From positions 11,217-75,216 of the forward strand of contig CAXCDZ010000001.1 in assembly GCA_963981525.1 (NCBI GenBank): a stretch of DNA of 64,000 bases, read 5' to 3'. The notes beneath the pieces were generated by a model that saw nothing but the letters and a program-made list of their open reading frames with translations, searched no databases and was not told the DNA's origin. The DNA is from an uncultured bacterium (GTDB lineage: Bacteria; Patescibacteriota; Microgenomatia; UBA1400; UBA12108). Position numbers and translations under genes: made by a program. Position 1 is the stretch's first letter, and each line of letters starts with the position of its first letter. This document shows, in pieces, positions 10,132 to 24,759 of the stretch.

Positions 10132-10425
10132 CTAAACAAATCTGATCTGGAGAGTCTTACCTAATGCCCTGGCGATGCGATCAACGAGCTGGATTGAAGG
10201 ACTAACACTCATAGATTCGATCCGGGAGATCACGGCCTGAGTAGTACCTGCAAGCTTTGCTAATTCCTGTTGTGTTAGATTGTTAGCAATACGCGCGCTA
10301 ATAAGCTGTCTTCCCACTTGATATTCAGTCTCACTGTTTTGCCACTCCTCTTCAAATTTGGGAGATTTGCGTAGCCTAGCAATTGTGCGATCTAGATCGT
10401 CCTGTTTTTTATTCATAATTTGCAT
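10132..10425 (-). CDS. higA: XRE-family helix-turn-helix antitoxin (HigA-like)
   Basis: 'ISARIANNLTQQELAKLAGTTQAVISRIE' is a canonical HTH_XRE. Lies immediately downstream of a Gp49/HigB-like toxin gene. Confidence 0.7.
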   Translation of the reverse strand: MQIMNKKQDDLDRTIARLRKSPKFEEEWQNSETEYQVGRQLISARIANNLTQQELAKLAGTTQAVISRIESMSVSPSIQLVDRIARALGKTLQIRFV

Positions 10426-10447
10426 TATATCTGATTAGATATAAATG

Positions 10448-10768
10448 TCAAGTGATCTTTGTTAACTGCTTTTGCCCAAACACTAGATCTTTTCTGCTAG
10501 TTGATCTGCTAGTTTTGCGAAAAATATGCAAGATATAAACTATACTTTTCTTTTGATAAACAAAAATCCTGGTATTATGCTTACCAAGAATACGCACTTC
10601 CCAATAATCATATCCACGCATTTTTTTAAGATCACGAATAGCTGGACTAACTCCATACTCTTGCAAGTATTGGAGTTTGCGAGCTATCTTACGTTGCTCT
10701 GCCACAGAAACCTTGTCCAAATACCCATCTAGATCAATTAGATAATCTATCTGATAACTCATGCTCAA
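10448..10768 (-). CDS. higB: Type II toxin, RelE/HigB (phage Gp49-like, DUF891) family
   Basis: 'WEVRILGKHNTRIFVYQKKSIVYILHIFRKTSRSTSRKDLVFGQKQL' matches the Gp49-like killer-protein signature. Toxin-upstream/XRE-antitoxin-downstream order is typical of HigBA. Confidence 0.65.
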   Translation of the reverse strand: MSMSYQIDYLIDLDGYLDKVSVAEQRKIARKLQYLQEYGVSPAIRDLKKMRGYDYWEVRILGKHNTRIFVYQKKSIVYILHIFRKTSRSTSRKDLVFGQKQLTKIT

Positions 10769-10822
10769 TCCTTTCTCACTAATCCATTACTAACTCCAGT
10801 ATTACCCATATACTACCCGAAG

Positions 10823-11953
10823 TCAAGTATTGCAAGAAAACTTAGAAATCACATATGACATGATGATGTACATGCTTGGCAAGATTGGCATGAGGTAACG
10901 AGGGAAGACGAGACGGAGAGAGATAAATGTGAGATAAACGATGATCCAGGTGAAGTGAAGGAGAATTGTTCTGTTGGCTCGAAGACGTTTCTGAAAGAGT
11001 GAGGTGAAAGTTGCAAGAAGTGAGAGAGGCCAGAGCAGGCTCCAGCCGGGAGCTGGAATAAGTCCGTGATCTCCATACCACTCACGCCACTGACCAGTTA
11101 GGACTATGCGAAAGATCTCTCCTTTGGGATATTCTGGTACGTATGAGTGGTAGAGCCTGAGAATACTAACGTGAAGCTCCACAAAGTCGACTATGCTATG
11201 ACCACGAACAAAAAACATGATGTAACCAGCTAGATAAGTTAGCAGACTGATATATGAGAGTTTGATGAATCTGATAATCTTCTGTCTATCTGAAACATAG
11301 AGATAGATAAGGGAAGAGATTGCTAGAACTAGAGCAACAGAGAATGACTTGGAGAGTGCGATGAGTGCCAGAATGACCATACTGAGCCTGGGCCGAGTGG
11401 AAAAAATGTAGAGATAAAGAGCGATGAGAGTAGTCTGGATGAGGTCGAGGTAGGGACGCACAAGCTGCTCCCGAACGAGTTGATCAGATACTAAGAGTAG
11501 TGGGGAAGCGAGAGACCACCACCTACTCATGAGGCGGCGAGAAGTAAGATATGTAAGAAGAAGGAGAGAGGCAAATGATAGGTACTGAACTAGCATGGGA
11601 CTGCCAAACAATAGTGTGGAGAGACCAAAAAGATATTTCCCGAGTGGTTGAGTCTCTGGATTGATGCTTGTTGGGTCTGAGCCTTGGATGTATTCGTACC
11701 CGGCGAGAGTATAGAGATCGGAATCGCTAATATTCCCATCGAATATACCTTCCTGATTGCAATACGTCCGATATGTGGAAATCATCTTATCCCAGCCATG
11801 TTGAGCTCGATAGTCTGGCAGGCAATATTGAGAAAATGAATATTTCTCTTGAAGATGAGAGACGTTGAGTTTGTTTAGATAATAAGATGCGCCAAGCATG
11901 AACGTGAGAGTAAGAAAGGCGGCAAATATTACCTTGAGTTTGCTATTAGACAT
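10823..11953 (-). CDS. Polytopic membrane protein, probable GT-C (PMT_2-like, degenerate DE loop)
   Basis: 'NPETQPLGKYLFGLS' resembles the PMT/ArnT 'KPPLGYWL' loop. Multi-TM. Confidence 0.45.
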   Translation of the reverse strand: MSNSKLKVIFAAFLTLTFMLGASYYLNKLNVSHLQEKYSFSQYCLPDYRAQHGWDKMISTYRTYCNQEGIFDGNISDSDLYTLAGYEYIQGSDPTSINPETQPLGKYLFGLSTLLFGSPMLVQYLSFASLLLLTYLTSRRLMSRWWSLASPLLLVSDQLVREQLVRPYLDLIQTTLIALYLYIFSTRPRLSMVILALIALSKSFSVALVLAISSLIYLYVSDRQKIIRFIKLSYISLLTYLAGYIMFFVRGHSIVDFVELHVSILRLYHSYVPEYPKGEIFRIVLTGQWREWYGDHGLIPAPGWSLLWPLSLLATFTSLFQKRLRANRTILLHFTWIIVYLTFISLRLVFPRYLMPILPSMYIIMSYVISKFSCNT

Positions 11954-13479
11954 TGAGTTGCATCCATTGAGTTCATGTTTTGTAAAACAAATATTTTGGG
12001 GATATCAGATGATTGCTGGTAACAATTATCGAGGACTTTTGACCAATTAAAGACAGTTTTTTCAAATTGTGGAACGTCCATATCGGTAAGGAAGGTGTTG
12101 TAGATAACAATTTGCGGGGGGTTGTTAATTACCTGAGTGTAATACTCAAGCCTTTGCCATTTTGCAAGAGTGATGTTGGCGAGGAAATGCCTGGTGCAGG
12201 TCCTGCGTTGTGTGTGTACCGGAGCCTCAGCTGCCCCCCAGCCGTAAACAGAGACAATACAGTCACTACTTGTAGTGTTCTCTAAGATGAACTCCTCTTC
12301 TGGCTTGAGCTTGACTTGCCAAACTATACTTGTCGGGAATTGTGTCGGAATATAAGCAAGAGCGAGTTTTTGATTTGGCAAAACGACGATAATAAATGTA
12401 AGTAGGAAGAGTGTGCTGACAACAAACTTTGAAAAGCGACCCTTTAGGACAGAGGTTGTGAGGGATGATGCCCAGTCAGTAATTATTGCGATAGTAAGTA
12501 TTAGGGGAGGTATAATCTGCACCAGGTAGTGTGAGCTAATGCTCCGTCCTGCTGCAAAACCTATAAAAGAACCAATTGAGTAAAATATAACCACAAGCTG
12601 AGGAAGATTGACGCGGTTAATGAAGGTGAGCTTGATAAGTGAGATGAGTGCGCCAAAAGATAGGAGCAAAATAATAGCAGGAGCGTAATTTAATTCTGTG
12701 ATGAGCTTGGAGATAATGGTGATAGTTTCTGGGGTGTGAATAATTAACTGTCTAATATTTAGGAATCCAGATTTGTATCTAAGCACCTCTAGATATGATG
12801 GGAGAGCGCTACTTGAAAGTAGATATGCTGTAATAACTGCGAGGCTTGAGATAAATCCCATTACAAACTTAAGTGTCTGAATAATTACTGTTTTGTACTT
12901 AGCTTGTTGGAATGCAAAAAGCATAAAAGGAATGATGGCAAAAACAGTGAATCCAAAAGGGTCTTTCATTTGGCTTGCCGTGGCAAAAGCAAAACCTGAC
13001 CAAAAAAGACTAGGCTTGTCCTGAATAAGCAGTTTTAAGCCAAGGAGGGAAAGTAACAAGCCAAACATCTCAGAGCCAATTAGAAGTGACTCTATCAGGG
13101 GAGAAAATAGAATTATTGAGATAATGACTGTTGATAGGAGAGAGTACTCTCTTGAGAGAATCTTGGTAGTAATCTTGTAAAGTAGTAGTGATATCAAGAA
13201 GTTGAGAAGTAGGTGGAGAAACTTGAATGATCCCAAGCTTTGGCCAAAAATACTTGCCCAAGAACTAACTACGAGCATAATTCCTGGCGGCTTGTATTCC
13301 CAGTAATCTAGATAGGGAACTCCGTTATTATTAAGCGGAGAAAGCGCAGGTAGAAGAAGCGAAGCTGTGTCGCCTGAGAATTTGTTATCAGGAAATCTGT
13401 TAACAATATTTAGCACCGGAAGAATGGCGAGAAGAAGAATAAATATTATTTTTTGAAGTTTTTTTGACTTTAGCTGCAT
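11929..13479 (-). CDS. GT-C fold glycosyltransferase, ArnT/PMT_2-like
   Basis: 'FPDNKFSGDTASLL...YWEYKPPGIMLVV' (EKPPG loop as in ArnT). ~12 TM. Confidence 0.55.
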   Translation of the reverse strand: MQLKSKKLQKIIFILLLAILPVLNIVNRFPDNKFSGDTASLLLPALSPLNNNGVPYLDYWEYKPPGIMLVVSSWASIFGQSLGSFKFLHLLLNFLISLLLYKITTKILSREYSLLSTVIISIILFSPLIESLLIGSEMFGLLLSLLGLKLLIQDKPSLFWSGFAFATASQMKDPFGFTVFAIIPFMLFAFQQAKYKTVIIQTLKFVMGFISSLAVITAYLLSSSALPSYLEVLRYKSGFLNIRQLIIHTPETITIISKLITELNYAPAIILLLSFGALISLIKLTFINRVNLPQLVVIFYSIGSFIGFAAGRSISSHYLVQIIPPLILTIAIITDWASSLTTSVLKGRFSKFVVSTLFLLTFIIVVLPNQKLALAYIPTQFPTSIVWQVKLKPEEEFILENTTSSDCIVSVYGWGAAEAPVHTQRRTCTRHFLANITLAKWQRLEYYTQVINNPPQIVIYNTFLTDMDVPQFEKTVFNWSKVLDNCYQQSSDIPKIFVLQNMNSMDATQCLIANSR

Positions 13480-13488
13480 GATTGCTAT

Positions 13489-15060
13489 TTATGATTGCGA
13501 TTTATTTTTGGAGAATAGTGATTTTGCCAGGATAATAACTGAGGCGAAATAGGTGCTTATCCATAGATACCACCATGATCCTTTGACCAGAAGTGGCTTG
13601 TATTGACTCAACTGAGTAAGCAGTGTGGGAATGGAGGTTAGATCGTAGTAGCTATTAACTAAGGTGTGCATACCTCCAAGCTGGAGCCAAACAAATATGA
13701 GACCTATGAGAATAGCGAGAATATTTTTGATCACGCGATTATCTGTAAAACTCGTGATGCCAAGTATGACTAGTGCCAGTTGAGAGACTATTAGGGGATA
13801 ATAATATCTAGCCTGAACACCCAATGAATATCCGAGTACGCGTGCAAATTGGTAGTCGTAAAGGAATATCCCCATTACATAAACAATGAGAGAGAGAATG
13901 AGGAAGGTGGGAATTGTTAACTCTGAGAATCTCTTATGCTTGATTTTTTTGAGATAAATTACACTAATGCCAATGATTGATACTAGGACTAGTCGATTGG
14001 ATAGCTGCCAGTAAATACTAGGCAGTACAATGCCAAGCCACTTAAACACACCCCAATACCAGACAATGTTTTGTGAGTTTAGTTTGTGAAAAGAAAATTT
14101 AGCGAAAGCTATTAATGTTGGGGGGTTAGAGGTTGTGGTGGTTATTAACTCGGCCCCAGGCAGCGTACCACTACTTAGGAGTGAAAAAATCTTAGGGAAT
14201 TCTTGCCATCCAGCAACAAGAGCGATAATAACTATCACTCTCATGAGAGCAGAAAAATGAGATCTAATATTCTTGTCCATTCTCAGACGGAGTACTAAGG
14301 CAATCAGGAGAATGGGAACAAATAAGTATCCCTGGGTTTTTGTAAGGAAGGTGAGGCCAGCGACAATTCCGATGGTGTTGGCTAACCTTGCACTCCACCC
14401 GGCGTTAATCACTCTGAGAGATAAATATATAAGCATGGTAAACAAGAGATTAAATAAATTGTCACTGTTTACACCTGAGCCTACAAAGGTAAGCATGGGA
14501 TGGAGAGAGGTTGTAATCGCAAGAACTGTGGGCAAATTGCTTTTTTTGGGAAAAACTTCTTTCCCAATAAGATATGCAAAATATATGAGAGTAGTTGATA
14601 AGAATATGCTCCCGACCCTAACTAGGAATAAGCGAGAGATGATATCCCTGTTTTTTGCGATCCGATAGAAGATTGAGCTATATGCGTAGTAGAGGGGTGG
14701 GTATCGCGCAGCTTCTCTCCAAACGTATGAAGAGGAGTTGGAGTCACTATTTAACTCACTGATAGCAAGTTCGTTTATTCCGAAGAGAGAGTCTGAGTAT
14801 TCTGGATGATACTCGCTATGGTAGGTATATTTATTGTTCCCGAGTTCATCCCGATATGTCCCTAGCAAATTTTCAGTTTGTAATAGCTCCTCAGACAAAT
14901 CATCTCCACTCCCTGTTGGCATCTTATCTTCGCTAGTGAAGTACTGTACTGAAGCAAGGTGAGCTTGCTCATCCGGAAACTCTAAGGGGAGAACTACCAA
15001 ACTCCAGGTGAGTTGGATAAAAAAAGAAGATAATATGATTAAGAAGATTTTTTTATTCAT
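13489..15060 (-). CDS. GT-C fold glycosyltransferase, ArnT/PMT_2-like
   Basis: 'LEFPDEQAHLASVQYF' DE motif and '...ARYPPLYYAY'. Polytopic. Confidence 0.65.
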   Translation of the reverse strand: MNKKIFLIILSSFFIQLTWSLVVLPLEFPDEQAHLASVQYFTSEDKMPTGSGDDLSEELLQTENLLGTYRDELGNNKYTYHSEYHPEYSDSLFGINELAISELNSDSNSSSYVWREAARYPPLYYAYSSIFYRIAKNRDIISRLFLVRVGSIFLSTTLIYFAYLIGKEVFPKKSNLPTVLAITTSLHPMLTFVGSGVNSDNLFNLLFTMLIYLSLRVINAGWSARLANTIGIVAGLTFLTKTQGYLFVPILLIALVLRLRMDKNIRSHFSALMRVIVIIALVAGWQEFPKIFSLLSSGTLPGAELITTTTSNPPTLIAFAKFSFHKLNSQNIVWYWGVFKWLGIVLPSIYWQLSNRLVLVSIIGISVIYLKKIKHKRFSELTIPTFLILSLIVYVMGIFLYDYQFARVLGYSLGVQARYYYPLIVSQLALVILGITSFTDNRVIKNILAILIGLIFVWLQLGGMHTLVNSYYDLTSIPTLLTQLSQYKPLLVKGSWWYLWISTYFASVIILAKSLFSKNKSQS

Positions 15061-16040
15061 GATTGTTTGGAATACCAGGCCCAGGAATCTATAATTGCAT
15101 CATGAATATCCAGATGTATTGGCTTCCATGATGAGATACGCTGGAATTTGCTTGAATCTGCGATCACCCTGGGTGAGTCACCCGACCTTGCGCTAGCGAG
15201 TTTGGTCACGATTTTTTGACCAGTAACTTCCTCCACAGCCTGAATAATCTCCATGACACTATATCCCCTACCCGTGCCTAGATTGAATAAGTCTGAGGAG
15301 TTGCCGCCCCTAAGATAGGCCAAGGCCGCAATGTGGGCATTTGCCAGGTCATCGATGTGAATATAGTCTCTGACACAAGTTCCGTCTGGGGTAGAGTAAC
15401 CAGTCCCGAATATCTCTAGAGCCCCTTCCCTGTCTGAGACTACCCGAAAACAGTTGGAGATAAGGTGGTGAGAGTGTTCTGGATTTTGGCCAAGGTGACC
15501 TGCTGGGTCAGCTCCTGCAACATTAAAGTATCGAAGGATTGCATAGTTGGAGTTGCTAGTCTTGGCCGAGTTAATGAGGGAGCACTCTGCCTCAAGTTTG
15601 GTGGCTCCATATGGATTAATTGGGTTTGGAATGCAGTCCTCAGTTATTGACTCAGACGAGACCTCCCCGTATACGGCAGCAGTACTAGAGTAAATGATGT
15701 GAGGGACTTGCTTGTTAACAATATAGCTCCATAGTTTTGCAGATTTCTCACTGTTGTTGAGCTGATATTTTTCTGGGTACTTGATGGACTCTGGCACGCT
15801 AATAGAGGCTGCAAAATGAATGACAGCATTAATCTGATTACGCGCAAACACTCGATCAAGAATAGTGGGGTCTGCAAAGTCACCCACAACTAACTCAGCT
15901 TGCTTGGGGAGGACATCTCGCGATCCAGTTGAGAGATTATCAATGACGATTACTTGCTCTCCCATCGCTATGAGCTTCTTGACAGTGTGGGAGCCTATAT
16001 ACCCACAACCACCTGTTATAAGTATTTTGGTTTTGTGCAT
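15057..16040 (-). CDS. galE: UDP-glucose 4-epimerase
   Basis: 'ILITGGCGYIGSHT', 'YSSTAAVYGE', 'YGATKLEAE' (YxxxK), 'LRYFNVAGA', 'GTGYSTPDGTCVRDYIHIDDLANAH'. Full-length GalE signature set. Confidence 0.85.
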   Translation of the reverse strand: MHKTKILITGGCGYIGSHTVKKLIAMGEQVIVIDNLSTGSRDVLPKQAELVVGDFADPTILDRVFARNQINAVIHFAASISVPESIKYPEKYQLNNSEKSAKLWSYIVNKQVPHIIYSSTAAVYGEVSSESITEDCIPNPINPYGATKLEAECSLINSAKTSNSNYAILRYFNVAGADPAGHLGQNPEHSHHLISNCFRVVSDREGALEIFGTGYSTPDGTCVRDYIHIDDLANAHIAALAYLRGGNSSDLFNLGTGRGYSVMEIIQAVEEVTGQKIVTKLASARSGDSPRVIADSSKFQRISSWKPIHLDIHDAIIDSWAWYSKQS

Positions 16041-16121
16041 GGATCGTTACCTGTATATTCTTGAGCTAATAATCTATAATTAGAAATCATTATAGTATAG
16101 GATCTCTATGAAAGGGCGTAC

Positions 16122-17042
16122 ATGAAGAGTTTAGTGTCTTTGGTGATACCAACATATAACGAAGTGGGTAATCTCGAAAAGCTATATGAGGAGATTGTTA
16201 GAAATCTAAGTAGTAAATACAGTTATGAAATAATTTTTGTCGATGATGGTAGCACCGACGAATCTCTAAAAATCATCAAAAAAATAAAAAAGAATGATAA
16301 GAGAATCAAGTTTATTTCTTTTACAAGAAATTTTGGCCACCAATACGCGCTAAAGGCAGGTCTAGATAACGCGAAGGGAGACTGCGTAATTTCTCTGGAC
16401 GCGGATCTTCAGCACCCACCATCCATGATTTCAGAAATGTTAAAAGAGTGGAAAAAAGGATTTAAGATTGTGTATACAAAGAGAGTCAGGGAAGACAATA
16501 CTTCTTACTACAAACTGATAACCTCCAAGCTTTTCTATTATATTATTAATAAGCTATCTCAAGTCCGGATAGAGTATGGAATGGCTGATTTTCGCTTACT
16601 GGATAGAAAAGTCGTTGAGATCATCAAAAATACAAGTGAGTCGGCTTTTTTCTTGCGCGGATTAGTTGCATGGACTGGCTTTCCAAGTAAGTCAATTACC
16701 TACACGCCAGATGAGCGATATTCAGGGCAAACCAAGTATTCTCTCCACAAAATGATGAATATGGCGATTGATGCGGTCACGTCGTTTAGCATTGTACCTT
16801 TACGATTAGCTACTATTCTTGGATTTTTTATCTCACTAGTGAGTGGGATATATGCCTTGTACGCAGTGATTGTGTGGATTACTGACAGCAAGGTGATTAC
16901 TGGCTGGCCATCAGTAATAGTGAGCGTTTTGTTTATTGGTGGAATGCAGCTAATGATGTTGGGAATAGTGGGTGAGTATGTTGGGAAAGTGTTTTTGGAA
17001 TCAAAAAAACGACCTCTATACATTATCGGGGAGATGGAGTGA
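16122..17042 (+). CDS. Polyprenol-phosphate glycosyltransferase, GtrB/ArnC/DPM1-like GT2 with C-terminal TM helices
   Basis: '[22 protein letters not shown]...EIIFVDDGSTDES...FTRNFGHQYALKAGLDNAKGDCVISLDADLQHPP' plus two C-terminal hydrophobic helices. Classic bactoprenol-P sugar synthase architecture. Confidence 0.85.
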   Translation: MKSLVSLVIPTYNEVGNLEKLYEEIVRNLSSKYSYEIIFVDDGSTDESLKIIKKIKKNDKRIKFISFTRNFGHQYALKAGLDNAKGDCVISLDADLQHPPSMISEMLKEWKKGFKIVYTKRVREDNTSYYKLITSKLFYYIINKLSQVRIEYGMADFRLLDRKVVEIIKNTSESAFFLRGLVAWTGFPSKSITYTPDERYSGQTKYSLHKMMNMAIDAVTSFSIVPLRLATILGFFISLVSGIYALYAVIVWITDSKVITGWPSVIVSVLFIGGMQLMMLGIVGEYVGKVFLESKKRPLYIIGEME

Positions 17043-18586
17043 CGAAGAGGATAATTTTTCTTGCTTTTAGCATTGTGGTAGGAATGTTCTTGGCTGGGAA
17101 TAATCTAAAAGCCGAGTTTGGGCCAATTGATGATCATGAAGTTGTTAACTGGCTAGGGGCAGATAGAAAGATACTGTTAAGTGAAATTCCCCAAATGCTC
17201 AAGGAGACTGAGCTTGGTAGATTTGGCAAATATGCCAGGTACAGACCCAGCTACTACACACTCCGGATCGGAGAGAGCTATCTGTGGGGAGGCAATGCTA
17301 GCCTGTGGTACATGGCAAGAATTGTGATGTTTGTGGTGGCTATCTATCTCACATTACTAATATTATCGAGTTATGTCTGGTGGCCAGTTGCCCTATTTGG
17401 TGTCTTACACATACTTGAGCAAAATTATTGGGGAGATATCTTATCTAGACTCGGACCATCAGAGATTTACTCAGTTCTAGGCCTACCTATGTATATATAT
17501 GGACTAATTCGGATATGGAACCCTAAGAGCACTAATAATAGAGCCATGTTCATCATGTACTTTGTGGGGTTTGTGATTTGTGTCGGGGCAAAAGAGAATT
17601 TTTCTTTTCTGTTGATACCAACCCTACTCTTATCTGGCAGGCTTATCAAAGAAAAGCGAATGAGCGGCTGGAGACTAGCAGGATCGATTGCAATGATTGG
17701 TTATGTGACAACTATATTTGCCTCGATTGCGATTAACACCCTCAAGACAAGCAGTGATATCTACGGAGCGGATGTCTCAATTGCGTCGCGGCTGATAGCA
17801 TATATTGATAGCGTTAAGAATATAATCGACGGATTTGTGACAAAACCCATGTTCTTTTCGGCAATTGCAGCCATGCTACTAATACTTGCATATATCCCAA
17901 GAGAGCGAATATACAAGTTGTTTATGACTAGCATCCGCTATGCTGCGGTGGCGGCAGCGTTTTTGCTAGTTGGAGCTTCGCAGCATGTTTATTACGGGGC
18001 AATATTCCCCACCAATATCCGATACGATTTCCCAATCTTAGTCATCCCAACCATACTAATTATTATATTGACTAAGTATTTGGTAGCGGCTACGAGTGAT
18101 CTTGGCTTAAAAATTGCTCGACCCGCAATATATCTAGGGACATTGATTGCAATAGCTCTTCTTATACAACCGACCCACTACCTAGAAACCAGGACTAAGT
18201 CTATCCAGAACGTCGAGATGACAACTAGTTTTATGGGTAAGTTGAGAGCTGATGCGAGACGGATAAGTGAGAATCCGTCATCCCCTCTAATTATCAACAG
18301 TGAAAGACCAATTGATTATGAAATGATCTCCTCCTTACAACGATTCTTAGTATACTCCGGAGTTAATAGCCCAGTCTATCTTAGATATATATCTAACCCA
18401 GACTTACGAGATTCGACCTTAGGACAACTGCTGGACGATCGATTAAGGGTAGTGGCTGATCAGGGAAGTTCTGAGTATATTCGTGGGTTTACTGCGTATA
18501 ATGATCAGCTAATAATGGGTGACTGTTACAGTATCCTGGTAGGTGAAGTCGAAAGTGAGAGTTGTGTGAACCTAAGTCGTTACTGA
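17039..18586 (+). CDS. Polytopic membrane protein, GtrC-like candidate GT-C transferase paired with upstream GtrB-like gene
   Basis: 515 aa, many TM. 'GPIDDHEVVNWLG' acidic first loop. Start overlaps the stop of the GtrB-like gene (ATGA). Confidence 0.45.
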   Translation: MTKRIIFLAFSIVVGMFLAGNNLKAEFGPIDDHEVVNWLGADRKILLSEIPQMLKETELGRFGKYARYRPSYYTLRIGESYLWGGNASLWYMARIVMFVVAIYLTLLILSSYVWWPVALFGVLHILEQNYWGDILSRLGPSEIYSVLGLPMYIYGLIRIWNPKSTNNRAMFIMYFVGFVICVGAKENFSFLLIPTLLLSGRLIKEKRMSGWRLAGSIAMIGYVTTIFASIAINTLKTSSDIYGADVSIASRLIAYIDSVKNIIDGFVTKPMFFSAIAAMLLILAYIPRERIYKLFMTSIRYAAVAAAFLLVGASQHVYYGAIFPTNIRYDFPILVIPTILIIILTKYLVAATSDLGLKIARPAIYLGTLIAIALLIQPTHYLETRTKSIQNVEMTTSFMGKLRADARRISENPSSPLIINSERPIDYEMISSLQRFLVYSGVNSPVYLRYISNPDLRDSTLGQLLDDRLRVVADQGSSEYIRGFTAYNDQLIMGDCYSILVGEVESESCVNLSRY

Positions 18587-19764
18587 GTAAAGATAGAGAT
18601 AATCTCTGCTATCTCTTGTTGAGTGAGTTCTGGATTGTTACCGAAATAGAGGCCATTCTGATGGATCAGACTGGCGTTTGGACTGACAATGTTCTTAAGA
18701 TTGGGTGTTAAGTATTTTTTGAAAAATGGCTGGTCGGCCATATTGCCACCCACAACTGGTCGAATTTCGATCTTATCTGCACATTTCCTGACTAGCTCAT
18801 CCCTTATTTCTTGAGTTTTGCAGATTACAGGAATAGCAAAATTGGAGAGAAAATCCATATGCTCATATTTAATTGAATAAAAGCGATCAGTCTGAGAGTA
18901 GATCTCGGGAGCAATTGCTAAGAAGTTTTCGTTTCTTTTTTTGGTGATCTCGTCAATGTGCTTGAGCTGATTATGACCAAGGAAACCGTTAATTTCTGTG
19001 GGGCGCAGATTGTAACCAAGATCGTAGAAGGTGTAGCGAGAGTAAAAAGTTGAGTTTACGTCGTGCTTGTTGCGCATCTCCTCTTGTTTAGTAAGAGATA
19101 AGTTTCTGTCCCAACCGTGGGCACGAACTAACCTAAGCATAGTAGAAAGTTCTTCGTCGTCAGTCAGGATAGCGCCGCCTTCGATGGTAGACATGTGGTG
19201 GCCGACATAGAATGAGAAGGTGCTAGCAAGACCAAAGTTACCCAACTTCTTACCCTTGTAAACTGATCCCATGGACTCGCAATTATCCTCGATAAGGATA
19301 ATGTTTTTTTCACTGCATAGGCTACTGATCTGATCAAGGTCATCTGAGAAGCCGAGCAAGTTGGTGATGAATAGCATCTTAATGTCACCATGAAGCTCTA
19401 ACGCTTGAGAGAAGGTGCGGCTTGAGACATTGAGAGTGTCTAGTTCTACGTCTACTGGAATAGCTTCTAGGCCAAGTTGGATGATGGGCATGGCGTTGGT
19501 TGACCAGGTAAGTGATGAGAAGGCAACCTTGTCACCTTTTTTAAGCCTACCGAGATTGAGAAGTGACTGGATGATGGCTAGATTGGCGGAGCTACCGCTG
19601 TTAACGAATATTGCATGCTCCCTACCCTGGTATATTCCTAGCTCATTTTCAAATTTTTCACACTGCTTGCCAAATGATAATTGTTTGGCGGATGACAAAA
19701 ACTCGATAAGATCACTGGTAGTTTGTTTTTCGTTGTAGTAGGTAGACTTGATGAGCTTAATCAT
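18580..19764 (-). CDS. DegT/DnrJ/EryC1/StrS (ArnB-type) PLP-dependent sugar aminotransferase
   Basis: 'SGSSANLAIIQSLL', 'HHMSTIEGGAILTDDEEL', 'YNLRPTEINGFLGHNQL' are DegT-family hallmarks. Confidence 0.8.
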   Translation of the reverse strand: MIKLIKSTYYNEKQTTSDLIEFLSSAKQLSFGKQCEKFENELGIYQGREHAIFVNSGSSANLAIIQSLLNLGRLKKGDKVAFSSLTWSTNAMPIIQLGLEAIPVDVELDTLNVSSRTFSQALELHGDIKMLFITNLLGFSDDLDQISSLCSEKNIILIEDNCESMGSVYKGKKLGNFGLASTFSFYVGHHMSTIEGGAILTDDEELSTMLRLVRAHGWDRNLSLTKQEEMRNKHDVNSTFYSRYTFYDLGYNLRPTEINGFLGHNQLKHIDEITKKRNENFLAIAPEIYSQTDRFYSIKYEHMDFLSNFAIPVICKTQEIRDELVRKCADKIEIRPVVGGNMADQPFFKKYLTPNLKNIVSPNASLIHQNGLYFGNNPELTQQEIAEIISIFTQ

Positions 19765-19766
19765 AA

Positions 19767-20993
19767 CTATTTATTATAAAACAAATCTTGAATAGATTCT
19801 GCAGTATTTTTCCAGCTAAACTTGTTGACGATCGATTTCCTGGCTTTACGGGAAGCCTGCTGATATTTATTGGTATCCATCTTCATGACTTTTACGATGG
19901 CCTTGACCATCTTACCTGTGTCACGAGGGTCGACTAGATGGCCTGTAACGCCATCAACTACGTCTTCGTTCTTGACTGGATATCTAACGGCGAGAGTGCC
20001 GCAGGAGAGCGCCTCTTTTACCGGGAGAGCCATCGAGGTGGTACCAGACCGCTCAGAGTATGAGCATTGGACGAGAACCTTGGCCAGAGAGTATAGCTGG
20101 GGGAGGATGTGATAATCAACAAAACCTAGGAACTCAACAGAACTCTCTAGCTTGAGTTCGCTTGCCAGATTACGAAGTTTTTGCTCGGCCTTAGGATTCT
20201 TGATGGTTGAGGTGATTATCAGATGAGCTGATGGCACCTTTTTTTTGACTAGTGCGAATATTTTGATCATTTTGTCGGTACCTTTGACGGGAGAGTAATC
20301 AGTGCTGTGCACGACAACTTGCTTTCCTTTGTACTTTTTCTTGAGAGCACTGCTGGCAAATGGCTTGAAATGATCGGTGTTAATGCCTGCGTAGGAAATT
20401 GCGGGATTGACTCCAAAAATTTCTCTTATGTACTTTGCTGTCGTTTGATTGAGGGTAATTGTAGAGGTAGTTTTTTTAGTTGCTTTAATATCCATTTTTT
20501 TATAGGTAAGTGAGAGTGATCTGATTAAGAATCGCTTAAAAATTGGGAAATTGCTGATAAAGTCTTGATCGTGAAAAAAAGCAAATGGCTCAAAAATGTA
20601 CTGGATATGGCGAGATTGTGTTTTTGCCGCTAGATAATTGCCAACTACGTTCATGGGAAACATGTTTGAAACTATGATTGGTTTTTCACCCAACTCAAGA
20701 CTACTATTGGCTAGTCTTAAAATTGCAATGTTTTCCCACACAATTTGTATTGGGAGAGTTAGCCAGTAAATGAGAGAAGTTGAGGTTAGCTTATTAAGAG
20801 AAAGGAGTTGAACATCAAGCTTGGAGTAGTTATCCATCGCCTCAATAGAGGTGTTTTCGACGATAATAGTGATGCGAAATTTTTTACTAAGGATCTTTAT
20901 AACCTCGTAGATGAATTTGGTCCCTCCCATCCAGTAGAGGAAATGAGTATGAAGCCAAAATATATGAAGTTGTTTTTTCTTATTTTTTTTCAT
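19767..20993 (-). CDS. Glycosyltransferase family 4
   Basis: GT-B layout with C-terminal 'SYSERSGTTSMALPVKEALSCGTLAV' (E..E region). Confidence 0.65.
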   Translation of the reverse strand: MKKNKKKQLHIFWLHTHFLYWMGGTKFIYEVIKILSKKFRITIIVENTSIEAMDNYSKLDVQLLSLNKLTSTSLIYWLTLPIQIVWENIAILRLANSSLELGEKPIIVSNMFPMNVVGNYLAAKTQSRHIQYIFEPFAFFHDQDFISNFPIFKRFLIRSLSLTYKKMDIKATKKTTSTITLNQTTAKYIREIFGVNPAISYAGINTDHFKPFASSALKKKYKGKQVVVHSTDYSPVKGTDKMIKIFALVKKKVPSAHLIITSTIKNPKAEQKLRNLASELKLESSVEFLGFVDYHILPQLYSLAKVLVQCSYSERSGTTSMALPVKEALSCGTLAVRYPVKNEDVVDGVTGHLVDPRDTGKMVKAIVKVMKMDTNKYQQASRKARKSIVNKFSWKNTAESIQDLFYNK

Positions 20994-22317
20994 TTAAATA
21001 GTCTGCTAGATGGGTAAAGGCAAAATACATTAGTAGTGGTGTAAATGATAGCATCATTCTGGCAGCTGAGGGGCCAATAGAGGACCAAACGGTGTATTTT
21101 TGGGCAAAAATGTAGCCTCCGCCCAAGAGAATCGCTGTGCCTAGAGTAAAAATAATTAGCCATGCTGGGCGAATGCGCTTTCTTTCTCTAATCGTGAGGA
21201 ATGCTGCAAGAGCGGCAAGTAAGGTTGGGATCTTGATGTATGTAAGATAGTTTTTGACCAAGAAGAGCTCGATCTGGAATAGTTCTTTAAGGTTAAAATT
21301 AGCGAGAATTGATCCTAAGGAGATGCTAACCAGTCGTTTATTCGTGAGGTCAACAACAGCATAGGATGTCCAGAGATATCTGGAGAGAAAAAATAAGGCG
21401 ATTAGGACAGATGATTTAATAACTGATTTTCTTTTGACCATTTGGTAGAGCATGACTGAGATAGTAATAAGCCAGAAGGGCTCTAGAGATCTTGTGAAAA
21501 AAGAGGATAGGAGCATAAGAGTCGAGATCGTGGGTGAGTAGTTTTTTTTGTCGATGAGAAAATATATCGAGAAAAAGAAGAATATGGTGTACGGGAGATT
21601 GGTGTAGGCGATGGTTGAGTGCGAAAATAGTTCGGGAGATGCAGCAAGAATGAGAGGAAATAGGTGAGTTAGTTTGGGCTTGCCTGATCGTATCCCCCAT
21701 TTTTCATAGAAAAGTAGCACGAGACTAAGATAGAAGCCAAAGTACACTATCATCGGCGTTGAGGCACCCAAGATATAGCTCCAGGCATGCAAACTAGATG
21801 TCATAAATGGATAGCTATAGTAGTAGTCAAAATTGCTATAGGTATCGTGAATGTCGTTCCTAAAATCTTCGATCCGGATGTTTTCTGAGAAGACTCTGCC
21901 CCGGAAATCATAGAGAGTGAGAGCGTCCCAGTCTGTGACTGGCCAAGAGAGATTGTGGAGCAGAATGGTAGAAATAAATGCAATTAGGAGAAGGTTGAGA
22001 GGAAGCTTGAGGGTAGACATATATTTTGTAAGACTTATTCTCTTCCATACCCCACTACGCACGACTCGGAAGATGAAGTAAGCAAGAGAGATAATAGCTG
22101 CAGAGAAAACTAGCTGATGCGAAATGTTAGCTCCCGATATCATAATTGCGGTAAAGACAATGTTAATAAGGGTCGCCCCCAAGAGGAATGAGATCGAGAG
22201 AGTGAGGAGTGAGGATAACTTGTGAGCGAAGCGATTCCTGAATAGATCAAGACATGTCCACCCGAGAAGAGTAATTGTGAGGTATCCAGCAAATAGATTG
22301 ATAAGTGAAATAATCAT
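20980..22317 (-). CDS. Uncharacterised polytopic membrane protein, family 'A' (paralog of 25695..27014)
   Basis: 'WPVTDWDALTLYDFRGRVF', 'YSYPFMTSSLHAWSY', 'AYTNLPYTIFF' are shared with 25695..27014. Confidence 0.5.
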   Translation of the reverse strand: MIISLINLFAGYLTITLLGWTCLDLFRNRFAHKLSSLLTLSISFLLGATLINIVFTAIMISGANISHQLVFSAAIISLAYFIFRVVRSGVWKRISLTKYMSTLKLPLNLLLIAFISTILLHNLSWPVTDWDALTLYDFRGRVFSENIRIEDFRNDIHDTYSNFDYYYSYPFMTSSLHAWSYILGASTPMIVYFGFYLSLVLLFYEKWGIRSGKPKLTHLFPLILAASPELFSHSTIAYTNLPYTIFFFFSIYFLIDKKNYSPTISTLMLLSSFFTRSLEPFWLITISVMLYQMVKRKSVIKSSVLIALFFLSRYLWTSYAVVDLTNKRLVSISLGSILANFNLKELFQIELFLVKNYLTYIKIPTLLAALAAFLTIRERKRIRPAWLIIFTLGTAILLGGGYIFAQKYTVWSSIGPSAARMMLSFTPLLMYFAFTHLADYLNEKK

Positions 22318-22319
22318 AA

Positions 22320-23894
22320 CTATTTTATCCTCATTTCCCTAAGGAGATCTTCTCCTAGATTTGGACTCTCGTGTGTTAGCAGACTTGAGAGAATTGAGGC
22401 ATATCTTCTTGCCTCTTTTTGATTATTCTCTTGCATATTGAGATAGTATAGTCCGACTAGAGACTCTAGATTACTACTCTTGAGTAACAAGGCTTGCTCA
22501 TAGAGCTCCCTGGCCTGGTCAAAGTCTCCCATTGTGTAGTGATAGGCACCAAGATTAGATAGTTGCTCTGAGGTCATGAGGTCATCGTTATGATCTAGCT
22601 TTCCCACCTTGGCAATGGCTTCACCGTAAAGGTATGGGAGAGGAGCGCGATTAGTGTACTTGAGGTATATCCCTAAGATAGATTGAGCGTCAGATAACCC
22701 TGCTTGGACGTCAGAGATATTTAGTTGAATAGTGGTGAGTTGATTCTTGATTGTGTTGGGATTGCCCTCATATTCAAAGTCGCCTTTTTCGTGATCATCT
22801 ACGTAAGCAACGACGCTTACTGAGTATGATAGATTTGAGTTTAGTTCGACTTTGACTAAATTTGCTGTCGCTAAGTCTTCTATTACAACCTCTTGATAGA
22901 TGTCGTCTAACTCGTTATCACCACCATCTTCTCCCAATGAGACTTCTTCTAGCAAGCTTAAAATAGATTCGCTACCATCAAGTCTTTCTATAATAATGTT
23001 GTTGATAGAGGCATCCAAGGTCCTTGGTAGTAGTGTTTGTACCTCAGCAATGGGAACAGGTAGGATCGGCCAGCCGTAAAATGATTCTGAGGATGGGTAA
23101 AGGATGGTATTGCCGGCGGTAATCATAATCCAGTCTGCAGAGTTGAGTGAGGAATAAAAATCCTCATTTGTTGCGGAGTAGAGTTGTCGTGGATAGAGAA
23201 AATAGCGAAGAAGTAGCTGATTACCCTCCATTTGCCAGGGGTTTTCCTGAGGTGGATGGGCAACTGAGGAGTCTTCTGGGACTACATCCTGATACAGAAC
23301 AACATGATCATAGTAGTCTCCCCAAACCGTCTTCATTCTTTGACGATAAGTTGCCGTATCCTCCCCTACTAGACGGTGGATTAGGCTTGGGAAGTAAGCT
23401 AATGAAAAATAGACAGTGCTGATAAATGAGTAAACTATGATTACTGCGGTGATAATGGGGACAGGCGATAGTTTTTTGGGTTTGGGAATTATTGAGGAAA
23501 GATACATTCCAGCAGAGAAAGTCAAAGTGAGGAAGGTTATCTCTGGATGAATGTGAACGTGGGAGAATACATATCCGGTTCCATTTCTTATCTCTACAAG
23601 AATTAGCAATAAATATATGGTGCTCGCAAGTGGTAGTAACACTATTCGATTAAACCTTGAGATAAATATGTCATCTTCTGACTTAGTCTTATGCAGCCAG
23701 TTAAGGAAAATGGTCATGACAATTAGAATCTTGATATCTATTCCAATAAAGTTGGAAACGAATCCATCGTATAAATATGCTTCTGTGAGAGAAAGCAATA
23801 TTACCAATAAGAATATATGTCTATTCATGCGTATAGGTATAGACATACTTTTGCTAAGTAATCTTCTAAATGATTTTGAGTAATGCTTATCCAT
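22320..23894 (-). CDS. Membrane protein family 'B' with C-terminal TPR repeats (paralog of 27016..28008)
   Basis: N-terminal 5 TM. 'LLRYFLYPRQL' is shared with 27016..28008. C-terminal 'AYHYTMGDFDQARELYEQALLLKSSNLESLVGLYYLNMQENNQKEARRY' is a TPR-like repeat. Confidence 0.5.
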   Translation of the reverse strand: MDKHYSKSFRRLLSKSMSIPIRMNRHIFLLVILLSLTEAYLYDGFVSNFIGIDIKILIVMTIFLNWLHKTKSEDDIFISRFNRIVLLPLASTIYLLLILVEIRNGTGYVFSHVHIHPEITFLTLTFSAGMYLSSIIPKPKKLSPVPIITAVIIVYSFISTVYFSLAYFPSLIHRLVGEDTATYRQRMKTVWGDYYDHVVLYQDVVPEDSSVAHPPQENPWQMEGNQLLLRYFLYPRQLYSATNEDFYSSLNSADWIMITAGNTILYPSSESFYGWPILPVPIAEVQTLLPRTLDASINNIIIERLDGSESILSLLEEVSLGEDGGDNELDDIYQEVVIEDLATANLVKVELNSNLSYSVSVVAYVDDHEKGDFEYEGNPNTIKNQLTTIQLNISDVQAGLSDAQSILGIYLKYTNRAPLPYLYGEAIAKVGKLDHNDDLMTSEQLSNLGAYHYTMGDFDQARELYEQALLLKSSNLESLVGLYYLNMQENNQKEARRYASILSSLLTHESPNLGEDLLREMRIK

Positions 23895-23910
23895 ATATAT
23901 TCATTCTAAA

Positions 23911-24759
23911 TTACTTCGGTAAAATAGCTACAATGTTAAGTATTCGACTGTTAATGTCTCCAAGTGGAATTTTGGACAGCTTACCCCCCTCTTTGAGGAT
24001 GTAGGTTTTATATCCACAGCTATTCAATAGATCCAGTGTCTTCGTGTTCGAATGACCATAATTACGCGAGTTTTTGTTTAACTCTACAATAATAACTGCT
24101 ATTTTTTTACCAAGGAGTGCTTTTTTTGCACCGAGTAGGACATCATATTCTGCTCCCTCAACGTCGATTTTGAGTATTTTAATTTGGCTTATCTTTTCCT
24201 TACGTATTACATGATCTAATGTAGTAACTCTAACCTCAATATTGCCTTGTTCGTTATTGATTGTATGTGAAATATGATTCGTTTCAGATATTTTAGTTGT
24301 TCTGAAGGTTGATTTTCCCTTTTTACTAGATAGTGCTTGATCAAATATGCGAACAGTATTTACGAGATTATTTAGTAACACATTTTCATATAATCTCTCC
24401 CTTGATTGTTGTGTTGGTTCAAATGCAAATATTCTACCCTTGGTAATCTTAGAAGCTGCAATAAGTGACATCTCGCCTATTCCTGACCCAACATCAACAA
24501 ACACATCGTCACTCCCTAGATTGTGATAGATGTATTCCATTTCTGCATACTCTGGCCATCCTTCATACACGATCAGGCTTCCAAATGAACTATCAGGGTA
24601 ACAGATACATTTTGTTTCTGGAGTTAATTGTATCAAGGCTGGAATCTTAAATGTTACTTGATTAATTCTCCACCAAATGACTCTAAGCAGGGCAATGTAC
24701 TTATGATTAGTGTTATTGGGATGGATTGTTATTCTGTATAGAGCTTTAATAATACTCAT
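23911..24759 (-). CDS. FkbM-family methyltransferase
   Basis: 'FVDVGSGIGEMSLIAASK...RIFAFEPTQQSRERLYENV' is the FkbM signature. Strongly AT-rich gene. Confidence 0.7.
   Translation of the reverse strand: MSIIKALYRITIHPNNTNHKYIALLRVIWWRINQVTFKIPALIQLTPETKCICYPDSSFGSLIVYEGWPEYAEMEYIYHNLGSDDVFVDVGSGIGEMSLIAASKITKGRIFAFEPTQQSRERLYENVLLNNLVNTVRIFDQALSSKKGKSTFRTTKISETNHISHTINNEQGNIEVRVTTLDHVIRKEKISQIKILKIDVEGAEYDVLLGAKKALLGKKIAVIIVELNKNSRNYGHSNTKTLDLLNSCGYKTYILKEGGKLSKIPLGDINSRILNIVAILPK

Follow-up and report, generated by a model that had tools for sequence, protein, structure and literature searches.

The two overlapping plus-strand genes analyzed here probably encode a two-enzyme unit, a GtrB-type synthase together with a partner of GT-C type, that glycosylates on the outer face of the membrane: we place the probability of this reading at about three in four. 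They lie in a 64-kb stretch of Patescibacteria DNA (64,000 nucleotides, the window) that is almost wholly a minus-strand glycan locus. Gene 1, gene 2 (the product of which is protein X) and neighboring features are defined in Table 1; the pair refers to both genes, and L-numbers (L002, L005 and so forth) denote genome loci compared with the window. The sequence-only reading had remarked on the orientation of the pair, opposite to the rest of the locus, and rightly so: the plus strand holds just 4 of the ∼55 real genes of the window. The locus itself is large and of polysaccharide type, with Wzx-like flippases, many GT2 and GT4 genes and sugar-nucleotide enzymes. Besides X it encodes more than 10 further GT-C-like proteins.

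The pair is a familiar kind of system; the X family is unannotated. The known mechanism of lipid-linked extracytoplasmic glycosylation is unchanged by our finding. What is gained is a fold and a probable donor for a widespread membrane-protein family, the characterization of which would aid in interpreting surface-glycan loci of uncultured Patescibacteria, which are very rich in GT-C genes.

Table 1. Features of the pair and its surroundings (positions in the window).
Feature	Position	Strand	Details
Gene 1, GtrB-type polyprenyl-phosphate (undecaprenyl-P) hexose synthase (by homology)	16122..17042	+	ATG start; 306 aa
Gene 2, protein X, polytopic membrane protein with predicted GT-C fold	17039..18586	+	515 aa; about 11 TM helices; N-terminus inside
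galE (UDP-glucose 4-epimerase family)	15057..16040	-	TIGR01179, 376 bits (cutoff 262); divergent from the pair
DUF2142 polytopic membrane protein	13489..15060	-	PF09913, E 4.6e-27; co-transcribed downstream of galE
Divergent intergenic region between galE (-) and gene 1 (+)	16041..16121		81 bp; 32% GC
DegT/E1-dehydrase-like gene	18580..19764	-	3′ end converges on gene 2
Convergent 3′-end overlap, gene 2 and DegT-like gene	18580..18586		7 nt
HigA/HigB-type toxin-antitoxin pair	10132..10768		ORFs of 97 aa and 106 aa
Second candidate donor synthase, GT2 fused to GtrA domain	62682..63857

Gene 1 encodes a putative GtrB-type synthase

Homology supports the assignment of gene 1 as a polyprenyl-phosphate sugar synthase with the full GtrB/ArnC architecture, as the sequence-only reading had proposed: a GT2/GT-A domain (PF00535, E 1.5e-36, residues 6-166) is followed by a juxtamembrane region and two C-terminal TM helices, with hydrophobic segments beginning at about residues 219 and 265. 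The match to Synechocystis GtrB (sll0501, PDB 5EKP) is full length (E 1.6e-81, residues 5-304), and the hydrophobic C-terminal region aligns with TM1 and TM2 of that protein; key residues, juxtamembrane helices, the two TM helices and the C-terminal tail are all shared. In the HMMER alignment D93/D95, R121, D156 and R199 of gene 1 correspond to GtrB D94/D96, R122, D157 and R200, the DXD motif reading D93-A-D95. Both the Und-P-glucose synthase activity of Synechocystis GtrB and the roles of its key residues (DXD, R122, D157, R200) are published (PMC4728340). Gene 1 is also 40.1% identical to P22 GtrB over 98% coverage, matches ArnC at about 1e-38 and finds GtrB in 132 of 50,697 phage records; an identical protein is named ‘polyisoprenyl-phosphate glycosyltransferase’ by JGI.

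The top NCBIfam match is PgfS, with 286 bits against an equivalog cutoff of 500, and ArnC scores 162 against a cutoff of 529. Because both scores fall below the equivalog cutoffs no specific sugar can be assigned. In contrast to Synechocystis GtrB, the donor here may be something other than UDP-glucose, as the adjacent galE suggests.

The two reading frames overlap by 4 nt. The junction, previously read as ATGA, is in fact GTGA (17039..17042), in which the GTG start of gene 2 overlies the TGA stop of gene 1; the open reading frames and the overlap are nevertheless as described, and a GGAG stands 5 nt upstream of the GTG. Such an arrangement points to translationally coupled genes. The 4-nt overlap is kept in L002, L009, L010 and L018, and in the last three of these the X homologue starts with ATG at the equivalent junction. 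Some gene callers begin gene 2 at ATG 17084, giving 500 aa; GTG 17039 is preferred because the shorter version would lose the first TM helix (residues 2-24, preceded by a K/R-bearing N-terminus on the inside), which is conserved in the family.

Protein X has a predicted GT-C fold

The sequence-only reading had described a polytopic protein carrying ‘DDHE’ in its first loop. The description holds: D31-D32-H33-E34 lies in the first outer loop, 7 residues past the first TM helix. Among 49 diverse members of the family, conservation of D31, D32 and H33 reaches 90% or more, and the DDHE motif is kept in a set of about 1,500 cluster representatives. The conserved motifs of the family (IDDHE, RYRPSYY, SRLGPSE, GxKENF and RYDFP) are directly testable. 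According to the predicted topology all conserved polar motifs face outside, as does a small C-terminal domain of ∼105 aa with a conserved Cys pair.

The AF2 model of X is confident and in Foldseek searches matches solved GT-C enzymes, although with weak E-values (best 3.3e-3); identity to the GT-C enzymes ArnT and PMT/PMT_2 is only 5-13%. The model thus supports the GT-C fold that the sequence-only reading had expected of the second gene, and the first outer loop carries the conserved acidic motif. The assignment is founded on predicted structure and gene association, there being no significant sequence match to solved or curated families: Pfam gives no match for X (PMT_2, YfhO, DUF2142, PTPS_related and Glucos_trans_II included), searches of PDB sequences with X alone and with a 49-sequence profile return chance matches only, and BFVD viral structures yield nothing useful. 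NCBIfam has no model for X. Its sole match there is a marginal one to WsfD (NF051875; E 2.4e-4, 20 bits against a cutoff of 80) that covers residues 95-232 only and is made by one of the 49 members tested, the other 48 having none; three of the 49 weakly match PMT_2.

Two possible relationships within the window were considered. X does not appear to be a paralogue of the neighboring DUF2142 protein (hhalign probability 0.4%), and similarity to the PMT_2-like proteins of the window is not significant (12%). A scan of ten long X members (681-851 aa) found no GtrB-X fusion; their N-terminal extensions (140-340 aa) contain no Pfam domain.

X-family genes are associated with GtrB

The X family is scattered among CPR, Chloroflexota, Verrucomicrobiota, Planctomycetota, Bacteroidota and Proteobacteria; at E≤1e-3 it numbers 1,495 representatives of clusters formed at 50% identity. 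Of 23 genome loci, 14 have a strong homologue of GtrB, scoring 159 bits or more, within ∼1 kb of X. Either gene may come first, and some pairs stand alone (L005/L006, L025, L026); at L005 the pair sits beside resolvase, ParB and RepB genes. The remaining nine loci divide into four that are cut by contig ends and five with intact flanks (L013, L014, L024, L027 and L028). The similarity scores of GtrB and X co-vary among loci (rho 0.67, p 0.009), while at the closer loci GtrB is 52-68% and X 31-46% identical. The conserved 4-nt overlap, combined with the strong GtrB homologue at 14 of 23 X loci, supports the view that gene 1 and X are a coupled functional pair. The same adjacency indirectly makes X a candidate user of a lipid-phosphate-linked sugar donor. 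Given a second candidate donor synthase (Table 1) and the abundance of GT-C-like proteins, the pairing of gene 1 and X in this organism need not be one-to-one.

It could be argued that X makes no use of the GtrB product and that adjacency is incidental, X being either a polymerase or ligase like Wzy, WaaL or WpsI/J, with diphosphate-linked oligosaccharides as substrates, or a scaffold or transporter of GT-C fold that has no catalytic role. The five intact loci devoid of a nearby GtrB fit such a view, as does the existence of many other GT-C-like genes in the window that could use the product, and two family members weakly match an ‘oligosaccharide repeat unit polymerase’ model. Those matches are, however, marginal (2 of 49 members), and the association with GtrB extends over many phyla, in both orders and in isolated two-gene units. 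Together with the conserved overlap, the co-varying scores and an acidic motif placed as in catalytic GT-C enzymes, these observations render an incidental neighborhood very improbable.

GalE and a DUF2142 protein complete a four-gene set

Divergent from the pair is galE, which is likely to supply or diversify the UDP-sugar used by the gene 1 enzyme. A GalE homologue is linked to GtrB and X in L002, L008, L009, L010 and L018. The DUF2142 protein encoded downstream carries a conserved E27-P29-D30-E31 motif near its N-terminus and, compared with the PMT_2-like proteins of the window, gives an hhalign probability of 91.6% (E 8e-7); it is a candidate second GT-C-type enzyme. Orthologues of 40-43% identity adjoin GtrB and X in L009, L010 and L018. 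The layout differs: in the window the order is DUF2142 ← galE followed by GtrB → X, whereas in these three loci GtrB → X converges on DUF2142 ← GalE. In three other genomes, then, GalE, GtrB, X and DUF2142 form a four-gene set resembling the Pgf system (see below).

From position, the promoters of both the galE unit and the pair presumably lie in the divergent intergenic region. A scan for consensus sigma-70 sites found none in that region, and a promoter and terminator scan of 15700..19000 returned fewer promoter-like sites than shuffled sequences.

The pair is probably a long-term resident of a variable locus

Since the pair looked AT-rich and opposite in strand, the sequence-only reading suggested that it may be an acquired add-on. 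An explicit version of this idea is that of a recently acquired, self-contained serotype-converting module of the GtrB-GtrC kind found in temperate phages. Gene 1 does begin AT-rich (29.5% GC over its first 200 bp), and its overall GC of 38.1% falls at the 5th percentile of windows of its size. Gene 2, however, has 42.1% GC, and the pair, at 40.6%, is about 1 SD below the mean of windows of the same length (43.0%, SD 2.4; 10.6th percentile) and so within the range of the window. The tetranucleotide distance of the pair (89.5th percentile) is likewise unremarkable, and the neighboring genes at 11929..15060 and 19767..23894 are also of 40-41% GC.

Codon usage tells a similar story. The codon deviation of the pair genes (Karlin B 0.34-0.35, against a mean of 0.29) was rejected as a sign of foreign origin: what chiefly sets plus-strand genes apart is G3/C3 skew, the difference expected from strand bias. 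GC3 skew is +0.21 in gene 1 and -0.18 to -0.39 in minus-strand genes, a mirror image which indicates that gene 1 has fully equilibrated to its own strand. Under so strong a strand-specific mutational bias neither the opposite orientation nor a locally AT-rich 5′ end is evidence of acquisition.

The true compositional outlier of the window lies at about 23000-26000, where the genes at 23911..24759 and 24763..25716 have 35.2% and 31.8% GC, respectively.

Comparison of loci bears on the same question. L002 retains galE, GtrB, X, DegT, GT1 and onward with order and overlaps unchanged, including the 4-nt overlap of the pair and the 7-nt overlap of gene 2 with the DegT-like gene; such tight packing argues against recent insertion. 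GtrB and X are there 68% and 46% identical to their counterparts in the window, a divergence like that of the flanking genes (38-77%). In the more distant relatives L035, L038 and L039, on the other hand, the DegT-like gene directly adjoins the DUF2142 gene, and galE is missing along with the pair. Contiguity of the flanks in genomes that lack the pair, proposed earlier as a sign of acquisition, is therefore found among distant relatives, but the closer one keeps the pair in place. Because DegT and DUF2142 are joined in those three loci, we infer that GalE, GtrB and X constitute an old gain/loss block.

Other features that could speak for mobility are the scatter of the X family over many phyla, the resolvase, ParB and RepB genes beside the L005 pair, and a conserved synthase coupled to a variable GT-C protein, as in gtr clusters. 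Against these stand the lack of tRNA genes in the window, of an integrase context for the pair and of convincing flanking repeats (imperfect short pairs only were found). X gave no tblastn match at E≤1 in 50,697 INPHARED phage records, and the IMG/VR viral contigs contained no relatives of its family. No gtrA gene occurs near the pair, where the small neighboring ORFs are a toxin-antitoxin pair, or beside the pairs of L005, L006, L009, L010 and L018, where the small ORFs are unrelated; the sole GtrA domain of the window is the one fused to the GT2 protein at 62682..63857. The opposite-strand layout is itself conserved in L009, L010 and L018. On balance the recent add-on is improbable, its ‘recent’ part being largely refuted. 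The evidence favors long residence in a variable locus over recent import; with galE, and often with the DUF2142 GT-C protein, the pair acts like a cassette carried by some lineages and missing from others.

Among the imperfect repeats, 16053-16073 and 18496-18516 are identical at 17 of 21 positions, a similarity judged to be due to chance.

Proposed function and acceptor

A plausible sequence of events for the GtrB plus GT-C unit begins with the adjacent GalE-family epimerase, which by its family membership would interconvert the UDP-hexose pool. The gene 1 enzyme, anchored by its two TM helices, would then move one hexose or N-acetylhexosamine from a UDP-sugar to polyprenyl phosphate at the cytoplasmic face, a step supported by strong homology. 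The lipid-linked sugar would next be flipped, with no adjacent GtrA-type gene at hand. On the outer face X would take the sugar from its lipid carrier and attach it to an acceptor, a role suggested by fold, conserved motifs and gene association. Most likely X passes the lipid-linked sugar on to a cell-surface molecule, and the location of the pair points to the glycan built by the surrounding locus as the most likely acceptor.

The acceptor could instead be protein, X being a protein O-glycosyltransferase (PMT, PgfM or PgtC2-like) that modifies secreted or membrane proteins and the four genes a Pgf-like cassette. In keeping with this, PgfS is the top NCBIfam match of gene 1, a GT-A synthase plus an epimerase plus two GT-C proteins is the composition of the S. 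mutans pgf operon, and stand-alone X-GtrB pairs (L005) exist outside glycan loci. However, the PgfS score is under its equivalog cutoff, PgfM1 and PgfM2 belong to the YfhO family whereas X and DUF2142 do not, and published DUF2142 proteins are linked to cell-wall polysaccharide assembly. The pair moreover resides inside a large locus of polysaccharide type. We regard a protein acceptor as rather unlikely, the glycan of the locus being preferred.

More speculatively, and at less than even odds, X may be the founder of an undescribed GT-C family of dedicated GtrB partners, forming with GalE and DUF2142 a portable, flippase-less set of four genes for extracytoplasmic galactosylation or GalNAc-ylation, in Patescibacteria/CPR perhaps of surface proteins, like those modified by Pgf, instead of a polysaccharide. 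Characterization of a single member could lead to a new CAZy GT-C family; GT136 is a precedent.

Relation to known systems

The nearest analogues of the pair are the GtrA/GtrB/Gtr* systems of Shigella and Salmonella phages, three-component periplasmic glycosylation systems of the Mann & Whitfield type (summarized in PMC11127046). Gene 1 is homologous to their GtrB and shares its domain and TM architecture; it too is paired with a polytopic protein, of predicted GT-C fold, bearing an acidic outer-loop motif; in both cases the synthase is conserved and the GT-C protein quick to diverge. In contrast to those systems, the pair lacks gtrA, is linked to galE and a second GT-C protein, and is found not on a prophage but in synteny within a chromosomal Patescibacteria glycan locus. 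Nor has X detectable similarity to phage Gtr* or GtrC: the comparison with GtrC/Gtr families, proposed with the sequence-only reading, found no match in either the phage tblastn or Pfam. The likeness to GtrB-GtrC drawn by that reading consequently stands for the pairing of a GtrB with a fast-diverging GT-C protein, but not for homology of X to GtrC or Gtr*, nor for a gtrA.

Comparison with the GT-C enzymes ArnT and PMT/PMT_2 is also instructive. PMTs have about 11 TM helices. X resembles these enzymes in having about the same number, with its acidic motif directly after TM1; it differs from PMT/PMT_2 in its small C-terminal outer domain with the conserved Cys pair, and, in contrast to the ArnC/ArnT system, no genes of the Ara4N pathway (ArnA, ArnD) adjoin the pair.

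The Pgf system of S. mutans consists of the GT-A synthase PgfS, the epimerase PgfE and the GT-C proteins PgfM1 and PgfM2, and adds GalNAc to Ser/Thr-rich regions (PMC12041528). The same four parts lie together in the window: gene 1 as the synthase of GtrB type, galE for the epimerase, and X and DUF2142 as polytopic proteins of GT-C type. The GT-C partners here, however, are an unannotated family and DUF2142, neither of which matches YfhO in Pfam, and the genes form two divergent or convergent transcription units rather than a single operon.

Lastly, in Paenibacillus alvei the branching glucosylation of the S-layer glycan is carried out by WsfH and WsfD, a lipid-P-glucose synthase and a membrane transferase encoded in a cluster without a flippase gene (PMC2943079). 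The logic is the same as that of the pair, including the absence of a flippase gene.

Gene pair: a GtrB-type synthase and an unannotated GT-C protein

Both open reading frames recognized by the sequence-only reading are confirmed, and its anatomy of the pair is correct with the exception of a start codon: the junction, taken to be an ATGA overlap, reads ...GAG ATG GAG TGA, giving a GTGA overlap with GGAG 5 nt upstream. Some public gene calls begin gene 2 (hereafter X) at ATG 17084, for a product of 500 aa. The GTG start at 17039 is preferred because the alternative would delete the first transmembrane (TM) helix, which is modelled with pLDDT >90 and is kept in the other full-length members of a 10-sequence family alignment. 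The same 4-nt start/stop overlap of GtrB and X occurs in a relative (L002, GCA_020049755.1) and at loci from Woesebacteria (L009) and Microgenomates (L010 and L018). The convergent DegT-like gene and gene 2 share 7 nt at their 3′-ends. A terminator-like GC-rich hairpin followed by a T-run lies within gene 2 (17935..17960), but the count of such structures is not above shuffled expectation and it is probably due to chance.

Coordinates of the gene pair and of other features in the window
Feature	Coordinates	Strand	Details
Gene 1 (GtrB-like)	16122..17042	+	306 aa, ATG start
Gene 2 (X)	17039..18586	+	515 aa, GTG start
galE	15057..16040	-	divergent from pair; TIGR01179, 376 bits (cutoff 262)
DUF2142 polytopic protein	13489..15060	-	after galE
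DegT-like (CDP-6-deoxy-hexulose 3-dehydrase-like)	18580..19764	-	
FkbM/RfbT-like methyltransferase	23911..24759	-	282 aa; 35.2% GC
Protein without assigned function	24763..25716	-	317 aa; 31.8% GC
PMT_2-like genes	at 122, 11929, 30707, 32350, 40556, 46292, 52518, 55911		
PTPS_related genes	at 38087, 50982		
Wzx-like flippases (two)	6943..8229; 49535..50998		
Polytopic membrane protein	59859..61028	+	389 aa; no Pfam match
Polytopic membrane protein	61025..62680	+	551 aa; no Pfam match
Second membrane lipid-sugar synthase candidate	62682..63857		GT2 fused to GtrA/DPMS TM domain

Judged by its sequence, gene 1 is certainly a member of the GtrB-type family, with the full GtrB/ArnC architecture originally attributed to it. 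It contains a GT2 domain (PF00535, E 1.5e-36) and both C-terminal TM helices, and residues 5-304 align with Synechocystis GtrB (PDB 5EKP, E 1.6e-81); ArnC structures are matched at ~1e-38. Identity to phage P22 GtrB is 40.1% over 98% of length, and a Listeria phage homologue is 41% identical. The residues important in GtrB, namely D94/D96 of the DXD motif, R122, D157 and R200 (PMC4728340), align with D93/D95, R121, D156 and R199. Among NCBIfam models PgfS scores highest (286 bits, under the equivalog cutoff of 500); the ArnC model gives 162 bits against a cutoff of 529.

X matched no Pfam family and no PDB sequence, and among NCBIfam models only WsfD, marginally (20 bits; the cutoff is 80). 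Across 49 diverse family members the WsfD match is confined to the window protein, and PMT_2 is weakly matched by three. A word-indexed search returned only 10 homologues, whereas an exhaustive profile search returned 1,495 cluster representatives at E<=1e-3, 717 of these at E<=1e-30. Neither 50,697 phage genomes nor IMG/VR yielded a member of the family, and membership of X in the GtrC families, to which it had been likened, is not supported. The proposed GT-C fold is, on the other hand, supported: from the family alignment AlphaFold2 yields a confident model (pLDDT 83.7, pTM 0.83), and Foldseek places ArnT first (E 3.3e-3, probability 1.0, TM 0.44).

Positions invariant or nearly so in the family are D31 D32 H33 (the 'DDHE' of the sequence-only reading), R67-x-R69-P70, E79, W131, L138-G-P-x-E142, G183-x-K-E-N187, D240-x-Y242, Q315, R328-Y-D-F-P332 and C496/C509. 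From model helices and hydrophobicity ~11 TM helices are predicted and the N-terminus is placed inside; past TM7, where the model is less confident, the topology is more tentative. On the inner side are the short K/R-rich loops (205-209, 285-295, 355-359); all conserved polar motifs, and a C-terminal alpha/beta domain of ~105 residues with the Cys pair, are placed outside. This predicted layout is that of a catalytic GT-C enzyme on the outer face. That the pair comprises a lipid-sugar synthase and a GT-C transferase is well supported; the mechanism, lipid-linked glycosylation, is of an already known kind.

Some members of the X family, among them P0029, P0052, P0070 and P0089 (823-851 aa), carry N-terminal extensions of 140-340 residues without a Pfam domain; these may represent additional TM helices or a novel domain.

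Association of GtrB and X across genomes

Contigs with X homologues come from Woesebacteria, Microgenomates, Peregrinibacteria, Anaerolineae, Verrucomicrobiota, Lentisphaerota, Riflebacteria, Prolixibacteraceae, Planctomycetia, Alphaproteobacteria and MAGs labelled Pseudomonadales. A strong gene 1 homologue (>=188 bits) lies within ~1 kb of X at 14 of 23 genome loci; none was found at four loci where the flank is ended by the contig end, nor within 6 kb of X at the remaining five. Both gene orders occur, and at L005/L006 (beside resolvase, ParB and RepB genes), L025 and L026 the two genes form isolated units. The L025 unit, in the order X→GtrB, belongs to a cultivable bacterium, Roseibium sp. 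MMSF_3544. Over the 14 loci the similarity scores of GtrB and X to the window pair co-vary (Spearman 0.67, p 0.009). At the closer loci GtrB is always the more conserved (52-68% identity against 31-46% for X), a pattern also seen in gtr clusters, where a conserved GtrB accompanies a more divergent partner.

Two loci merit mention. On a 73-kb JGI contig (3300045256; L005, 10001..12560) an isolated X→GtrB-like pair directly follows resolvase/recombinase, ParB and RepB genes, outside any glycan locus, so that plasmid-like elements may be a further vehicle of the X family. In a Candidatus Peregrinibacteria genome (L014, 5929..9128) there are two tandem X paralogues (209 and 194 bits), with no strong GtrB homologue within 6 kb.

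The linkage extends to galE and the DUF2142 gene. At L009, L010 and L018 the same four genes are present but rearranged, with GtrB→X convergent with DUF2142←GalE (identity to the window proteins 40-43% for DUF2142 and 38-41% for GalE); X also adjoins GalE at locus L008. The DUF2142 profile aligns with the PMT_2-type GT-C proteins of the window (hhalign probability 91.6%, E 8e-7), and the protein bears an E27-P29-D30-E31 motif near its N-terminus. As a relative of X it was rejected (hhalign probability 0.4%). In this linkage a GT-A lipid-sugar synthase and an epimerase are combined with two GT-C proteins. The same four parts make up the S. mutans pgf operon, whose products attach GalNAc to Ser/Thr-rich stretches of proteins (PMC12041528), although the GT-C families of that operon are different. 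In lactococci and streptococci, published work links DUF2142 proteins to the assembly of cell-wall polysaccharides, one instance being a variable 'GT2 + DUF2142' pair in S. thermophilus rgp loci. Novelty is modest and lies in X, a member of a large, unannotated GT-C family whose consistent partner is GtrB, and in the recurrence of the pair together with GalE and DUF2142.

Composition and strand bias

The pair had been described as AT-rich. This is true of the first 200 bp of gene 1 (29.5% GC, unranked in the window distribution) and of gene 1 itself (38.1%, 5th percentile of same-length windows), but only slightly of the pair as a unit: gene 2, unranked separately, has 42.1% GC, and the pair, at 40.6%, falls at the 10.6th percentile (window mean 43.0%, SD 2.4), with the flanking genes 11929..15060 and 19767..23894 likewise at 40-41%. 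Its strand-symmetrised tetranucleotide distance is at the 89.5th percentile.

Codon usage deviates somewhat (Karlin B 0.34-0.35; mean 0.29, SD 0.07; gene 2 is on the high side), but the deviation is accounted for by strand bias rather than foreign origin. As had been noted, the pair runs opposite to nearly all other genes: only four real genes of ~55 are on the plus strand. The ~51 minus-strand genes have C- and T-rich coding strands, with coding-strand GC3 skews of -0.18 to -0.39. Cumulative GC skew climbs monotonically through 1..64000, GC and AT skew both being positive on the plus strand nearly throughout. Together the cumulative and GC3 skews indicate a strand-specific mutational bias across the whole window; for 60 kb or more, gene orientation opposes the G-rich strand. 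Third-position G/C skew, which explains the codon-usage deviation of the pair, is +0.21 in gene 1, +0.06 in gene 2 and ~-0.05 in the other plus-strand pair. Gene 1 is fully equilibrated to the bias, which argues for long residence in its present orientation.

The clear compositional outlier of the window lies at ~23000-26000. The methyltransferase and 317-aa protein genes found there show the largest tetranucleotide deviation; neither has a counterpart in the relatives L002 and L035, and L002 lacks exactly these two AT-rich genes. As a recently added modification module these two genes are more plausible than the GtrB pair.

An old three-gene block

An identical locus was read on 22 contigs, which stem from several samples, and the pair is present in each case. 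In L002 the order epimerase / GtrB / X / DegT-like / GT1 / 445-aa / TPR and onward is kept, overlaps included, and the identities of GtrB (68%) and X (46%) fall within the 38-77% spanned by flanking genes. Both observations speak for long residence. In three more distant relatives (L035, L038 and L039) the DegT-like protein is 70% identical and orthologues of the epimerase, TPR, 445-aa, DUF2142, 376-aa and 316-aa proteins are present, but GalE, GtrB and X are absent from the contigs. There the DUF2142 orthologue directly follows, and overlaps, the DegT-like gene; GalE, GtrB and X therefore define a block gained or lost relative to this lineage. From these sequences the direction could be either.

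The proposal of an acquired AT-rich module thus stands only in part: composition lends it no support, and comparative genomics recasts it as an old three-gene indel, in place in L002 and with its flanks joined in the more distant relatives. No tRNA, integrase or convincing flanking repeat was found at the block. The sole flanking repeat, an imperfect 21-nt direct repeat (17/21 identical) that roughly brackets the pair, has one copy in the upstream intergenic region (16053..16073) and the other inside the 3′-end of gene 2 (18496..18516); we judge it to be chance. Over long time scales the block behaves as a module; it is neither a recent import nor an instance of phage-type seroconversion.

The surrounding glycan island

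The window is one long glycan island. Its GT-C-like polytopic proteins, very dense over 122..57419, include at least eight that are PMT_2-like, two PTPS_related, one DUF2142 and several that are unannotated. Short GT2 genes (55145..55909, 57416..58123) stand immediately before several of their genes, which suggests repeated synthase/GT-C pairings. In the host organism more than one GT-C protein could draw on the GtrB product. Many GT2 and GT4 genes, several methyltransferases and two further epimerase/dehydratase-family genes are also present. Among named homologues, those nearest to the DegT-like dehydrase come from the Patescibacteria group, Levybacteria and Pacebacteria, which makes a CPR bacterium the probable host.

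The other plus-strand pair, which encodes the 389-aa and 551-aa proteins, is convergent with the GT2-GtrA/DPMS fusion gene, and 59859..63857 may constitute a second lipid-sugar synthase and transferase module. The first of these genes overlaps a minus-strand ORF (58157..60028) by 170 nt at their 5′-ends, and so one start is probably over-extended. Within the glycan locus there is also a toxin-antitoxin pair (10132..10768), comprising a Gp49/HigB-like protein of 106 aa, whose gene has 35.5% GC, and an HTH_3/HigA-like protein of 97 aa.
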